Source of the DNA: Candidatus Eiseniibacteriota bacterium
Lineage (GTDB): Bacteria > Eisenbacteria > RBG-16-71-46
Assembly (NCBI GenBank): GCA_036505355.1
Contig: DASXTP010000085.1
Span: 1,463-65,462 of the forward strand
Direction: 5' to 3'
DNA length: 64,000 bases
Below the pieces are notes generated by a model. That model ran no database searches. It had not been told where the DNA came from and saw only the letters and a program-made list of their open reading frames with translations. The position numbers and the translations under genes were made by a program. Shown here piece after piece: positions 14,845 through 18,896 of the stretch. The first letter of the stretch is position 1. Every line of letters begins with the position of its first letter.

Positions 14845-15768
14845 ATGATGAGCCGCGGTGTGGTGTTCTCTCTCGCCTTGCTCGCCGCCTCGCTGTCGAT
14901 GCTGGTCATGGCCCGGCCGCCGTCCTCGCAGTCGGCGCCCCACGCCGTCGGCTCGGAGGCGTGCAAGGACTGCCACCAGGACCAGTGGCAGGCCTTCCAG
15001 CACAACCCCCATGCCCGGGCCGAGATGGACCAGGCGGTGGTGGCCGACCAGGTCGGCTGCGAGTCGTGCCACGGCCCCGGATCGGCTCACGTCGAGGCGG
15101 GAGGCGACCGCTCGGACCCGGGGTTCGCCTCGATCCGCAACTTCAAGACCCTCTCCGCCAAGGACGCCAGCGAGGTGTGCGCGTCCTGCCACAAGGCCGG
15201 CGAGCAGTTCTACTGGGAACACAGCAGCCACGCGCGCAACGACGTCTCGTGCGTCCAGTGCCACAGCATCCACCATGCGAAGAACGAGGGAGCCGGCCCG
15301 ATGCTGACGGCAAGCGACGTCAACCACCTGTGCATCACCTGCCACAAGGACAAGCGTGCCGCGCTGGCGCGCTCGGCGCACATGCCGCTCCGCGAAGGAA
15401 GCATGACCTGCGTGGACTGCCACAATCCGCATGGCGCGCCGGCGGCGCGCATGATCCGGGCCGCGACCGTCAACGAGCTGTGCTACAAGTGCCACGCGGA
15501 CAAGCGTGGGCCGTTCCTGTGGGAGCACCCGCCGGTGCGCGAGAACTGTCTCAACTGTCACCAACCACATGGCTCGAACAACGACAAGGTGCTGGCGGGC
15601 AAGCGACCGTATCTGTGCCAGCGCTGCCACGTCGGGACCCGGCATCCGAGCACCCTCTACGACAAGCCCGACCTGCTCGCGAACCGGCTGTTCAACCGCT
15701 CCTGCACCAACTGTCACAGCCAGATCCACGGGTCGAACCACCCGTCGGGCAAGTACTTCCACCGATAG
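14845..15768 (+). CDS. mtrA: periplasmic decaheme c-type cytochrome, MtrA/DmsE (MtoA/PioA) family
   Basis: Ten CXXCH motifs counted: CKDCH, CESCH, CASCH, CVQCH, CITCH, CVDCH, CYKCH, CLNCH, CQRCH and CTNCH. It has a signal peptide and a C-terminus (CTNCHSQIHGSNHPSGKYFHR) typical of the family. I chose the ATG at 14845 because GGAGGA lies 8 nt upstream. Confidence 0.9.
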   Translation: MMSRGVVFSLALLAASLSMLVMARPPSSQSAPHAVGSEACKDCHQDQWQAFQHNPHARAEMDQAVVADQVGCESCHGPGSAHVEAGGDRSDPGFASIRNFKTLSAKDASEVCASCHKAGEQFYWEHSSHARNDVSCVQCHSIHHAKNEGAGPMLTASDVNHLCITCHKDKRAALARSAHMPLREGSMTCVDCHNPHGAPAARMIRAATVNELCYKCHADKRGPFLWEHPPVRENCLNCHQPHGSNNDKVLAGKRPYLCQRCHVGTRHPSTLYDKPDLLANRLFNRSCTNCHSQIHGSNHPSGKYFHR

Positions 15769-15772
15769 GAGG

Positions 15773-17986
15773 ATGCTCATGACGACCCTGAGACTTGCAG
15801 TCGCGACGGCGCTCGCGTGCGGCATGGTCGTGAGCGCGTTCTGTCCGGTGGCGCGGGCCGGCGAGGGCGAGGTCTCCTTCGGCTCCCAGTGGTGGGATCA
15901 GACGGTCCGGGACGCCAAGTACGACGAGTTCAGCCAAGTGCCGCGGGGGGGCTTCCTCGAGTCGTTCGTGCTGCGCGAATGGTCGGGGCGAAACAGCCTG
16001 GCGCTGTGGGGCGCCAACGGGCTGCGCAGCGACCAGGCCTCGAAGCTCACCTGGGCGAACGGTGCGCGCTGGCGCGTGGATCTCGGCTACACGCAGATTC
16101 CCCACCAGTTCAGCCATACCGCGCGCTGGGGATGGACCCAGACCGCCCCGGGCGTTTTTACGCTGCCGGACACACTGCAGGCGCGGAACCAGGCCCTCCC
16201 GACCAGCTACACGCCGCGGATGGCGGACTTCCTGGCCGACGCGCCGACCATCAAGCTCGGATTCGACACCCACATCTCGAATGCCCGGTTGCGGGCGCGA
16301 CCAGCGAGGGGCTGGCAGTTCGAGGCCCGAGGCACCATGCGCGAGCGGTCGGGACAGAAGCCCTATGCCCTGGATTTCGGCTTCAGCACCGCTCTCGAGA
16401 ACCCCGAGCCGATCAACCAGCGCATGGTGGACGCGGACTTGATCGCCAGCTACCAGCGCAGCCGGTTGAGAGCCCAGGCGAGCGTGGGGCTTTCCACCTT
16501 CGACAACGCGATCAGCACGCTGATCGTGGACAACCCCAAGCGGAATTTCGACACCAAGGGTGGCGACGGGCCGAGGGTGGGGCAACTCGACCTCTACCCG
16601 GACAACCAGGTGGTGCGCGGCTCGCTGGCTCTCTCCTACCTGCTGCCGAAGCGCACCGCGATCGCGGCCACGCTCGGCATCGCTCAGGGGAAGCAGGACG
16701 ACGACTTCCTGCCGTTCACGACCAACACCCTGGTGGACACCATAGGAGGAGACCTCAGTACCATAGGCAACAAGACGACCCTCGACTCGCTCGCGGCGCG
16801 GAGACTGGACGGGAAGACCACCCAGCTCAACGGGGACGTCCGGCTCACCACCAGCCCGGTGCGGGGTCTCGATGGAACCCTGCGGTTCCACTACACCGAC
16901 TACGACGACCGCACCGAGGAGCGGAACTGGATCGGCCAGACGCCCTACGACGTGACGTGGCAGCGTTTCATCGAGCTCGAGAGCGGGCCACACGGCAACA
17001 CGCAATGGCAGGGCGGGGTCGACGCGGACTACGCTTTCGCCTCGCAGTTCAGGCTGGGGGTCATCGCCGAGTATCGCTCGCGGGAGCGCGAGGAGCGTGA
17101 GGTAGAGAAGGACCACGAGACGGTGCTGGGCGGCCGCACGCGACTGCGCCCATGGGATGGGTTCGAAGTCTCGGGCCGCTACACGCATGGCGACCGTAAG
17201 CTGGACGAGTTCCTGGGCGAGGACTACATCGGTTTACGCACCCGCTTCGACCCGACGGCCCCCGGGCTCTACGACTCCCTGGGACAGCTCGAGCAACCCG
17301 ACCTGCGGCGGTTCGACGTCGCGAACCGCGTCCAGGATCTGGCCACGGTGGGCGCGTCCTACGCCTTCGGCGAACGCCTGGACCTGTCGGCGAGCTACGA
17401 CTACCTCAAGAACGATTACAAGGACACGAAGTTCGGCCTTCAGGACGAGACGCAACACACGGCAGCCGCCAACGCGACCTGGCACTTCAATGACCAGGTC
17501 GACCTCGACTGGGGAGGCGGCTACAGCGAGACCGAGACCAACCAGGCGTCGCGACAATCGGGCTCGTCGATCCCCTCCACCTCGTCCCTCGACGACTGGG
17601 GCGCCGACTTGAAGGACCGGGACGGCTTCGCGGCCGCAGGGTTCGAGTGGACTCCCAAGGGAAGGATCTCGCTCTCGGGCAGGTACCAGCTGAGCGTGCA
17701 CGACGCGAAGTTCGATCTGAGCAATGCCACGAGCACCGCACAGGACCTCCCGACGACGATCTACCGTCGACACGAATCGCTCTTGGACGCGAGCTGGCGA
17801 TGGCTCGAGAGCACGACCGTCGTGGGGCGCTGGGGCTGGGAGGAGTACGACGTCGACGACTGGGCTACCAACGACGTGCCGCTCATCTTCCCGGTCACCG
17901 GCACCGCGACGGCGATCTTCCTGGGGGACAGCGCCCGCAGCTACAAAGCGCACCGAGTCGCCCTGCTGGTGAAGCACCGCTTCTGA
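15773..17986 (+). CDS. mtrB: MtrB/PioB-family decaheme-associated outer-membrane beta-barrel protein
   Basis: ATG at 15773 directly after AGGAGG, 4 nt downstream of the mtrA stop. About 737 aa with a signal peptide, an alternating beta-strand pattern rich in Y/W/D/G, and a C-terminal ...LLVKHRF. It follows the decaheme gene as in mtrAB, pioAB and mtoAB. Confidence 0.85.
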   Translation: MLMTTLRLAVATALACGMVVSAFCPVARAGEGEVSFGSQWWDQTVRDAKYDEFSQVPRGGFLESFVLREWSGRNSLALWGANGLRSDQASKLTWANGARWRVDLGYTQIPHQFSHTARWGWTQTAPGVFTLPDTLQARNQALPTSYTPRMADFLADAPTIKLGFDTHISNARLRARPARGWQFEARGTMRERSGQKPYALDFGFSTALENPEPINQRMVDADLIASYQRSRLRAQASVGLSTFDNAISTLIVDNPKRNFDTKGGDGPRVGQLDLYPDNQVVRGSLALSYLLPKRTAIAATLGIAQGKQDDDFLPFTTNTLVDTIGGDLSTIGNKTTLDSLAARRLDGKTTQLNGDVRLTTSPVRGLDGTLRFHYTDYDDRTEERNWIGQTPYDVTWQRFIELESGPHGNTQWQGGVDADYAFASQFRLGVIAEYRSREREEREVEKDHETVLGGRTRLRPWDGFEVSGRYTHGDRKLDEFLGEDYIGLRTRFDPTAPGLYDSLGQLEQPDLRRFDVANRVQDLATVGASYAFGERLDLSASYDYLKNDYKDTKFGLQDETQHTAAANATWHFNDQVDLDWGGGYSETETNQASRQSGSSIPSTSSLDDWGADLKDRDGFAAAGFEWTPKGRISLSGRYQLSVHDAKFDLSNATSTAQDLPTTIYRRHESLLDASWRWLESTTVVGRWGWEEYDVDDWATNDVPLIFPVTGTATAIFLGDSARSYKAHRVALLVKHRF

Positions 17987-18137
17987 GGGAGGCCGATGGA
18001 GGCTCCACCCGGAGCCGGGGGCCGGAGGGAACCTCCGGCCCCGGTCTCCGAGACATCGAGGCTGGATACTCCCATTGCCGCCGCCGGCCTAGTCATCTTG
18101 ACGCTGGACCGAGCAAAGGGGGAGGATGGGCCCTGTG

Positions 18138-18896
18138 ATGAGAAAGATTATGAGGACGTTGGTGTTTGCCGCGCTGGCGGCCGGCACGTCCGCTTGGCTC
18201 ATCTCCTGCGGGCTGGCCGGAGCCCGCACCGACGCCGAACGCCTCGAAAGCGGCAAACGGGTCTTCCTCTCGTCGTGCGCGATGTGCCACGGGGAGACCG
18301 GCACGGGCGACGGCCCGCTTGCCGGGGAGCTGATGAAGGACGCACGAGTCAAGCCCGCCCGGCTCAACGACCAAGCCCGCATTTCGCTGCTGGGCCGCGA
18401 CGGGGTGAAGAAGGTGATCGTGGAGGGCGGAGGTCATACGATGCGATCCAACCTGATGCCCGCCTGGGGCGAGAAGCTCGGTCCCAAGCTGGCGGACGAC
18501 GTCACGGATTTCGTCCTGACGCTGCCGAGCCTGAACCCCGGCACGCCGACCGCCACGATCCAGAAGTACCTGCAGGCGCCGCCCGGGAGCCCGGCCGAAG
18601 GGCGGAAGCTGTTCGTCTACTACTGCTCGGGGTGCCACGGCCTGGCGGGCAAGGGCGACGGCGTCTACGCCAGGACGCTGCGGGTGCGCAACAAGGTCTG
18701 GCCGCGAAACCTCACCCAGACTTCCTACTTCCAGAAGAAGACCGACCGGGACATCTACGTCGTGGTCGCCCTGGGGGGCGGGCACGCGGGCAAGTCGACC
18801 ATGATGCCCGCCTGGACCGCAACCCTCGCCCCCGAGCAGATCAAGCACCTGGTGAGCTACGTCCGGGTGCTCTCGAAGACCGCCTCGCGGCCTTGA
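18138..18896 (+). CDS. diheme class-I c-type cytochrome, probable lipoprotein
   Basis: Two CXXCH motifs (CAMCH and CSGCH), each followed downstream by a Met-containing segment (NLMPAWG, TMMPAWT). The lipobox-like sequence is AWLISCG. The start is ambiguous (18126, 18135 or 18138). Confidence 0.85.
   Translation: MRKIMRTLVFAALAAGTSAWLISCGLAGARTDAERLESGKRVFLSSCAMCHGETGTGDGPLAGELMKDARVKPARLNDQARISLLGRDGVKKVIVEGGGHTMRSNLMPAWGEKLGPKLADDVTDFVLTLPSLNPGTPTATIQKYLQAPPGSPAEGRKLFVYYCSGCHGLAGKGDGVYARTLRVRNKVWPRNLTQTSYFQKKTDRDIYVVVALGGGHAGKSTMMPAWTATLAPEQIKHLVSYVRVLSKTASRP

Follow-up and report, generated by a model that had tools for sequence, protein, structure and literature searches.

The MtrAB, MtoAB and PioAB systems count among the principal routes known for electron exchange between Gram-negative bacteria and iron minerals, and most of their characterization has been in Proteobacteria. 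In Sideroxydans, the mto cluster comprises mtoA, mtoB, mtoD and cymA (PMC10654088, PMC4412085), and in Gallionella ES-2 and Dechloromonas, the clusters hold mtoA, mtoB, mtoC (a CbcL homologue) and mtoD (PMC6295460). Metagenome surveys have placed mtrAB/mtoAB in many phyla (PMC9769843, PMC10654088), and no published description of such a conduit in Eisenbacteria was found. The locus analysed here lies in a 64,000-nucleotide stretch of DNA, termed the window, from a Candidatus Eiseniibacteriota bacterium (assembly GCA_036505355.1, contig DASXTP010000085.1, positions 1,463 to 65,462 of the forward strand), and consists of genes for an MtrA-like decahaem cytochrome, an MtrB-like outer-membrane barrel and a dihaem cytochrome c. 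With moderate confidence, it is read as two tiers of a Mto/Mtr-type trans-envelope electron pathway with a dihaem carrier, leaning towards inward electron flow. The source assembly measures 3.03 Mb in 181 contigs with 69% GC and, because it is estimated to be only 77% complete, the absences from the genome given below are provisional; the G+C content of the window is likewise ~69%. All three genes lie on the + strand and are marked by high third-position GC:

14845..15768, + strand: mtrA/mtoA-like gene for a periplasmic decahaem c-type cytochrome of 307 amino acids (aa), with a signal peptide and ten CXXCH motifs
15773..17986, + strand: mtrB/mtoB-like gene for an outer-membrane beta-barrel of 737 aa, with a PF11854 match and a predicted barrel fold
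17988..18049, + strand: GC-rich stem-loop in the mtrB-dihaem spacer, whose core is a perfect 11-bp hairpin (18018-18042) with no U-tract
18138..18896, + strand: gene for a dihaem class-I cytochrome c, a probable lipoprotein of 252-256 aa, with an alternative ATG at 18126

In build and in proposed working, the locus appears, by analogy, closest to the Mto-type pathway. As in Sideroxydans lithotrophicus ES-1, Gallionella capsiferriformans ES-2 and Dechloromonas aromatica RCB, the decahaem and barrel genes are adjacent with no MtrC-type gene, a class-I cytochrome c gene stands in the cluster, a CbcL/MtoC-type cytochrome is encoded in the genome (PMC6295460, PMC4412085), and relatives carry a monohaem class-I cytochrome and a NapC-like cytochrome beside mtrAB. 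Such a gene content, together with these MtoD-like and NapC-like genes of the relatives, fits an earlier reading made from the sequence only, which had placed the locus closer to Mto/Pio than to MtrCAB logic. There are also significant differences. The carrier here is a dihaem His/Met probable lipoprotein, whereas MtoD, compared by description, is a soluble monohaem bis-His protein (PMC4412085). No CbcL/MtoC- or CymA-type gene lies in the cluster or the window, the MtoC-like gene being located on contig C139. Furthermore, the host is non-proteobacterial and apparently heterotrophic, with no RuBisCO found in the whole 77%-complete genome, and its MtrA belongs to a lineage-specific clade.

In the case of Shewanella MtrCAB (6R2Q), the MtrA fold family, the MtrB fold and the gene order, A then B, are shared, but MtrC/OmcA, the CXXC motif of MtrB, a stand-alone CymA and FccA/STC-type carriers are not. 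In the whole genome, nothing exceeds the cut-off of the MtrC/OmcA family model (TIGR03507; best 20.7 bits), HiPIP (PF01355) gives no match, stand-alone CymA is found neither there nor in the window, and no FccA/STC-type carriers were found; the lack of MtrC-type, CymA/NapC-type and HiPIP genes that the sequence-only reading had noted for the window holds, and for MtrC/OmcA, stand-alone CymA and HiPIP it extends to the genome at its present completeness. PioABC of Rhodopseudomonas palustris TIE-1 is likewise a two-component conduit without a surface cytochrome, followed by the gene of a small periplasmic carrier. Unlike in PioABC, the carrier here is a dihaem cytochrome instead of a HiPIP, there is no sign of phototrophy, and the MtrA of 307 aa has no long N-terminal extension of the PioA kind (PMC10654088).

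The profile, structure and fold matches of the three-gene locus are far beyond chance. The decahaem gene starts at an ATG with GGAGGAG located 8 nucleotides (nt) to its 5' side, and its product contains exactly ten haem motifs: CKDCH, CESCH, CASCH, CVQCH, CITCH, CVDCH, CYKCH, CLNCH, CQRCH and CTNCH. In NCBIfam, it matches TIGR03508 ('DmsE family decaheme c-type cytochrome') with 273.1 bits (cut-off 192.2, E 2e-81), a model that spans MtrA, MtrD and DmsE alike, and in Pfam, it matches Paired_CXXCH_1 and related haem families. Its match in the PDB is chain A of 6R2Q, the MtrA of Shewanella baltica (E 1e-60, 38.9% identity), with the haem motifs all in register. Aligned with 24 diverse homologues, the protein shows no variation at any CXXCH or at six more histidines (H82, H129, H196, H228, H242 and H295); these six would provide the distal ligands for bis-His ligation, in an inferred haem-by-haem assignment. 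The ten motifs, the size, the score over the family cut-off and the adjoining MtrB/PioB-type barrel gene together assign the protein to the MtrA/DmsE family, as a decahaem MtrA/MtoA homologue with predicted export to the periplasm.

The barrel gene begins after a gap of exactly 4 nt from the stop of mtrA. Its product ends in an aromatic C-terminus (...KHRF), has no cysteine in the mature protein, and matches PF11854 (MtrB_PioB) with 267.8 bits (cut-off 23, E 3e-79) over profile positions 48-635 of 635; no other MtrB_PioB match occurs in the whole genome. Pairwise sequence comparison finds the solved MtrB weakly (E 5e-4), and the structure was therefore predicted. The AlphaFold2 model, built on a 35-sequence alignment, has a predicted local distance difference test score (pLDDT) of 87, a predicted template modelling score of 0.82 and ~26 long strands. 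In a Foldseek search of the PDB with this model, the top match is the MtrB of 6R2Q (6R2Q_B) with E 5e-40 and template modelling scores of 0.80/0.90, followed by TonB-dependent transporters at E 5e-10, ~30 orders of magnitude worse. The barrel is accordingly modelled as a large MtrB-like fold of ~26 strands. An N-terminal CXXC in MtrB was reportedly described by Wee et al. in 2014 as a signature of metal-reducing Gammaproteobacteria. No such motif is present at the N-terminus here, the sole two cysteines lying within the signal peptide; since it is also missing from all 34 related barrels compared, it is uninformative as a marker of direction. The MtrB CXXC motif is also mentioned in PMC12175506.

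The spacer between mtrB and the dihaem gene measures 139 nt to the ATG at 18126 and 151 nt to the ATG at 18138, the latter being better spaced from GGAGG. The spacer RNA folds with -83 kcal/mol over 157 nt (z = -2.9 versus shuffles), and a terminator scan gave no intrinsic terminator at this spacer; the stem-loop may act as a partial terminator or as an mRNA-stability element. The dihaem protein has a signal peptide terminating in a lipobox, L-I-S-C, and two class-I cytochrome c domains, PF13442 and PF00034 matching two stretches each. Thus far, the sequence-only reading is borne out: it had described a ten-CXXCH decahaem gene followed 4 nt later by a barrel of ~737 aa as an MtrA/MtrB-type core and, ~150 nt further on, a lipoprotein with two class-I haem domains.

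Both CXXCH motifs of the dihaem protein are invariant in 33 homologues, and of the MP(A)W methionines, M107-P108 is invariant and M223-P224 nearly so; because of this conservation, both haems are predicted to have His/Met ligation. By its sequence, the protein fits the CcoP/cytochrome c4-type class, with two class-I domains that each carry a CXXCH and a Met sixth ligand. Its AlphaFold2 model (pLDDT 84) matches in Foldseek the dihaem partner of Kuenenia HAO, actinobacterial QcrC and cytochrome c4; the fit is good for each domain alone but not for how the two domains are oriented to each other. CcoP itself was rejected as an identity (TIGR00782 66.7 bits versus a cut-off of 180, and no FixP_N domain), as was the PdsA family (NF049874 15.9 bits versus a cut-off of 330). 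PdsA of Aeromonas hydrophila and Vibrio natriegens resembles the present protein in being a dihaem periplasmic cytochrome proposed to act between an inner-membrane quinol dehydrogenase and MtrA, but it is of a different family and serves MtrC-containing reductive systems. A dihaem class-I build is also found in the c4-type Cyc1/CycA1 of Acidithiobacillus ferrooxidans, which link an outer-membrane Fe(II) oxidase to the terminal oxidase or the bc complex (PMC4412085). Unlike the present protein, these act after Cyc2 and rusticyanin and not after MtrAB, and the likeness is one of general class-I fold.

Gene searches were made across 41 genomes (40 relatives and the window's own), and the 80 named MtrA loci nearest to the query, from many phyla, were also compared. 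TIGR03508 is over its cut-off in 18 of the 41 genomes. The adjacency of mtrA and mtrB is found at 16 of the 17 relatives' loci with an MtrA over cut-off and at most of the 80 named loci, among which the nearest MtrA homologue is that of a 'Candidatus Eisenbacteria bacterium' metagenome-assembled genome (MAG), with 60% identity. A maximum-likelihood tree of 103 MtrA sequences (quick mode) used Gallionellaceae (Ferrigenium), Thiobacillus and Rhodomicrobium sequences as stand-ins for the MtoA/PioA references, and the S. baltica MtrA from the PDB alignment. The query falls in a clade of 17 sequences with a Shimodaira-Hasegawa-like approximate likelihood ratio test (SH-aLRT) support of 100, formed by relatives of the window's family and order, the Eisenbacteria MAG and one MAG titled as Acidobacteriota; its sisters are Elusimicrobiota, then Acidobacteriota and others. 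A larger clade of 93 rows (SH-aLRT 99) unites the query with Gallionellaceae, Zoogloeaceae, Rhodoferax, Rhodomicrobium and Hyphomicrobiales, the MtrA of S. baltica lying outside. The query is ~43% identical to a Gallionellaceae MtoA, which is in a separate clade. The phylogenetic placement that the sequence-only reading had called for gives, with stand-in references, a separate, apparently lineage-specific clade; it yields no functional assignment, since nothing reliable on function can be drawn from the tree.

In the Acidobacteriota-titled member (L031, DATIQI010000338.1), the MtrA shares 62% identity with the query and clusters with the Eisenbacteria MAG; mislabelling or mis-binning of the contig could account for this, as could a recent transfer.

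The genes on either side of the locus enter the comparison with relatives. An unrelated nucleotidyl transferase gene lies 5' of mtrA, and three genes for putative signalling proteins lie beyond the dihaem gene:

18969..19448, - strand: gene for a small receiver-like protein, convergent to the dihaem gene (Response_reg 20.9 bits, below the Pfam cut-off)
19877-21427, - strand: gene for an NtrC-type sigma-54 activator (Pfam matches)
about 21225-22496, - strand: gene for a PAS histidine kinase (Pfam matches)

The genes for periplasmic and inner-membrane partners of mtrAB are shuffled between genomes like modules. The dihaem gene adjoins mtrAB in four genomes and in three arrangements: the order of the window recurs in L110 (GCA_040961615.1), including the receiver, NtrC, kinase and nosZ genes; in G018, the dihaem gene is upstream of mtrAB; and in G005, it is on the opposite strand. 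In L111, G013, G010 and G012, it lies directly downstream of a CbcL/MtoC-like gene, whose protein is 58-63% identical to that of contig C139; beside it again stand, in L111 and G013, genes for the receiver, NtrC and the kinase. In Elusimicrobia L034, from the sister group, the order is monohaem c, mtrA, mtrB, dihaem class-I c and a ten-haem protein with an FdnI-like cytochrome b, the dihaem protein being only distantly similar to that of the window (23% identity). In Acidobacteria L047, a dihaem gene comes right after mtrB. Meanwhile, four relatives (G014, G037, G028 and G026) carry beside mtrAB both a monohaem, MtoD-like class-I cytochrome (PF00034) and a membrane-anchored cytochrome of the NapC/NirT family (PF03264, over cut-off).

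In the proposed pathway, MtrA would thread into the ~26-strand barrel so that its bis-His haem chain spans the outer membrane, by homology with the solved Mtr complex. Because there is no MtrC-type surface cytochrome, the outermost haem of MtrA would contact the extracellular substrate directly, as has been proposed for MtoAB and PioAB. On the inner side, the dihaem cytochrome, probably lipid-anchored, would trade electrons with the periplasmic end of MtrA, and would then link to the CbcL/MtoC-like quinone oxidoreductase of contig C139 and/or to the cbb3 oxidase and, in the periplasm, NosZ. The role of the dihaem cytochrome as the periplasmic partner of MtrAB is plausible and moderately supported: adjacency in four genomes, the linkage to CbcL-like genes and the gene order of L034 speak for this part of the sequence-only reading, and the low frequency of that adjacency, discussed below, speaks against it.

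The inner-membrane candidates for the pathway sit outside the window, on contigs C124 and C139. The C139 gene (C139:15813-18317) encodes a cytochrome c of 13 haem motifs joined to a membrane domain of the b561/FdnI type (PF01292), a build that pairs a multihaem c with a cytochrome b and that the Shi laboratory has described as the CbcL/MtoC/MtrH architecture (PMC6295460). This gene is divergent from genes for a 5-haem c554-like protein and a protein of 15 haem motifs (C139:15813-21148), a trio that recurs in G010 (L115), there with the dihaem gene after the CbcL-like gene. The C124 gene (C124:620-2521, - strand) encodes a protein with 17 haem motifs and a membrane-anchored NapC/NirT domain as its N-terminus. 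It is downstream of two bc-type cytochrome b genes (4198-4722 and 7181-7717), out of three in the genome, and this cluster may be an unusual quinol:cytochrome module.

The net direction in which electrons move is not readable from sequence, a caution of the sequence-only reading that is upheld. Inward flow, in which the oxidation of Fe(II) or of reduced minerals would give a heterotroph supplementary electrons for O2 or N2O respiration, is leaned towards with slight confidence; outward flow is rather unlikely, and what is left of the probability belongs to a reversible system or another role. The inward lean is drawn from the absence of MtrC, the His/Met carrier, the cbb3 oxidase and nosZ genes of the window, two genes of Cyc2-like architecture and the mto-like clusters of relatives. 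His/Met class-I cytochromes c are usually of high potential. The haems of MtoA span +30 to -350 mV, and MtoD is at +155 mV (PMC4412085). The window holds the following genes of this kind, among which the N2O reductase and the cbb3 oxidase are possible electron sinks fed by cytochrome c:

27242..28519, + strand: gene for a monohaem cytochrome fused to a porin-like barrel, of Cyc2-like architecture, with one CXXCH and the end ...IWIW
33193-35700, + strand: nosZ-like gene (Pfam nos_propeller)
36150-37763, + strand: nosD-like gene (Pfam NosD)
41554-43749, + strand: gene for a fused CcoN-CcoO of cbb3 oxidase, 731 aa, with Pfam COX1 and FixO in one protein
43940-44554, + strand: gene for CcoP, with FixP_N and a single matched cytochrome c domain

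CcoP is ordinarily a dihaem protein. The cbb3 operon also holds CcoG and a CcoI-like ATPase, and the nos neighbourhood is also present in L110. A hemerythrin-domain gene lies directly 5' of, and overlaps, the NosZ-like open reading frame of 835 aa (32556-35700, + strand); since this frame is long for NosZ, the true start may be further 3'. The product of 27242-28519 gave no match in Pfam or NCBIfam and is a candidate called Cyc2-like by architecture only; its homologues are labelled 'hypothetical' or 'predicted porin', and a few of them match porin Pfam families. A second gene of this architecture, with a single CXXCH, a porin-like barrel and no Pfam or NCBIfam match, is found at C105:11360-12721 (- strand); a bc-type cytochrome b gene (C105:7675-8208) lies ~3 kb away, and a gene for a class-I cytochrome c is close by.

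Several observations weigh against a Mto-type pathway with a dihaem carrier and inward flow. The barrel, which was expected to match MtrB/PioB profiles, does so with PF11854 over its cut-off, but gives 203.2 bits on the narrower NCBIfam TIGR03509, under the cut-off of 240. The Thiobacillus locus, with its canonical mto-like cluster (mono-c, NapC, mtoA, mtoB), also lies outside the 93-row clade, beside the Shewanella MtrA, and according to Baker et al., MtoA and PioA form no function-specific clades (PMC8805035). The lipobox cysteine of the dihaem protein is not conserved and is missing in its closest NCBI homologue. MtrCAB itself can run backwards (PMC8805035), and homologues of CbcL/MtoC/MtrH occur in both reducers and oxidizers (PMC6295460). 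The remaining counter-arguments are those on which the two better-surviving rival explanations draw.

The first of these, possible if somewhat unlikely, is reductive extracellular transfer, in which electrons would pass from quinol through the CbcL-like or the NapC-fused 17-haem protein to the dihaem cytochrome and MtrAB, and from there to Fe(III), Mn(IV), humics or a syntroph, the last step being direct or via a large multihaem cytochrome encoded elsewhere. The cytochromes of 42, 17, 15 and 13 haem motifs in the genome, together with the lack of RuBisCO, suit a metal reducer; nearby genes for an NAD-type formate dehydrogenase and an ADP-forming acetyl-CoA synthetase add to the look of a heterotroph, and in G018, an 18-haem gene lies 2.3 kb downstream of mtrB. 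However, the genome has no MtrC/OmcA-family protein, and the cbb3 oxidase, NosZ and the two genes of Cyc2-like architecture fit electron uptake better. The potential of a His/Met class-I carrier is, moreover, usually too high for efficient reduction of MtrA-type haems. Described systems provide further support for outward flow, in that the CbcL of Geobacter has been proposed as a quinol oxidase (PMC6295460) and the periplasmic dihaem PdsA feeds MtrA as a shuttle in the reductive Mtr pathways of Aeromonas and Vibrio (bioRxiv 10.64898/2026.05.06.723379), but the present dihaem protein reaches only 15.9 bits on the PdsA model, with its cut-off of 330.

The 42-haem cytochrome is encoded at C35:4886-8665 (- strand), with ~1050 aa, 42 CXXCH motifs and ~19 doubled-CXXCH repeats; the neighbouring genes at 11435-13081 and 12967-14253 have 9 and 6 haem motifs, and proteins resembling it, of ~1000-1350 aa, occur in many relatives.

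The second rival, which is unlikely, takes the dihaem protein as a general periplasmic cytochrome c for the cbb3 oxidase and NosZ that merely adjoins mtrAB, with MtrAB using other carriers; it concerns the partner only and is compatible with either direction of flow. Homologues of the dihaem protein are found in 16 of the 41 genomes, eight of them without an above-cut-off MtrA, and in the eight genomes with both, the dihaem gene adjoins mtrAB in only three. The most constant neighbours of the dihaem gene are the small receiver gene and the sigma-54 two-component genes instead of mtrAB. The top family matches of the protein are CcoP-like and QcrC-like, only one cytochrome c domain was matched in the CcoP of the window, and the GC-rich hairpin stands between mtrB and the dihaem gene. 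On the other hand, the adjacency to mtrAB survives three different rearrangements, in L034, a dihaem gene is flanked by mtrB and a CbcL-like gene, in L047, one immediately follows mtrB, and class-I cytochromes are standard in mto clusters (PMC4412085, PMC6295460). A DmsEF-type conduit feeding an extracellular or outer-membrane molybdoenzyme (a dimethyl sulphoxide- or iodate-type reductase) in place of minerals is highly improbable and was rejected on gene content: the best NCBIfam name is 'DmsE family decaheme' and a molybdopterin oxidoreductase gene lies 6 kb downstream, but, unlike in DmsEFAB, no dmsA- or dmsB-like gene follows the barrel gene, the next gene being that of the dihaem cytochrome, the molybdoenzyme has N-terminal 2Fe-2S and 4Fe-4S domains and a NuoE/F-like gene before it, as in a cytoplasmic formate dehydrogenase of the NAD type, the Shewanella MtrA is outside the query's clade, and none of the ~100 related loci gave a different pattern in the searches run.

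Around the locus, the conserved neighbourhood suggests the sigma-54 two-component genes as candidate regulators of mtrAB. The receiver-like gene is always beside the dihaem gene in relatives (L010, L110, L111 and L114), and the NtrC/kinase pair adjoins mtrAB or the dihaem gene in L110, L111, L114, L019 and L022. In L110, the closest relative, a near-consensus -24/-12 site, TGGCACGGCACCTGC, is located ~50 nt upstream of its mtrA, in a region that is not conserved in the window. Upstream of the window's mtrA (14669-14844), there is no sigma-54 -24/-12 match with at most two mismatches, and across the window, such matches are at chance level (58 found versus 58.4 expected). Since the site is absent from the window, the counts are at chance and the L110 region is unconserved, no regulatory link to mtrA is claimed. 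A scan for sigma-70 promoters and terminators gave nothing useful. One-mismatch -24/-12 matches were observed at 22576-22590, before the formate dehydrogenase operon, and at 27185-27199, before the Cyc2-like gene (+ strand).

Further 3' on the + strand, the NuoE/F-like gene is followed by the formate-dehydrogenase-like molybdoenzyme gene, 6 kb downstream of the locus, with the ADP-forming acetyl-CoA synthetase gene nearby. The class II (B12-dependent) ribonucleotide reductase encoded elsewhere in the window, at 56877-61235 (+ strand), has 1452 aa and is split by an intein that carries a LAGLIDADG endonuclease domain; that of L111 has 1063 aa and no intein or endonuclease Pfam matches. A Ser/Thr protein kinase of 1104 aa fused to PD40 beta-propeller repeats is encoded at 7093-10407 (- strand).

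A broader proposal, which is doubtful, is that of a modular electron-uptake chain in Eisenbacteria and neighbouring non-proteobacterial phyla, in which MtrAB, as the outer tier and with no MtrC, would pass electrons to the His/Met dihaem cytochrome and on to the cbb3 oxidase or NosZ, with a branch to a CbcL/MtoC-like quinone reductase. A dedicated sigma-54 two-component system would switch the chain, and an organoheterotroph would use it to feed electrons of Fe(II) or reduced minerals into O2 or N2O respiration. If true, it would mean that a phylum without cultured members couples lithoheterotrophic oxidation of iron to the reduction of N2O.

No new mechanism is involved in the locus, which would be unsurprising to a specialist. 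An uncultured Eisenbacteria lineage holds its own well-separated conduit clade, and the conduit gene is found in 18 of the 41 genomes; this is of use for the annotation of metagenomes from soil and sediment, in which function is hidden behind 'DmsE family' labels. Most of the value of the locus comes from the natural modularity of its partner genes, which offers variants with which to test what determines whether electrons flow in or out.

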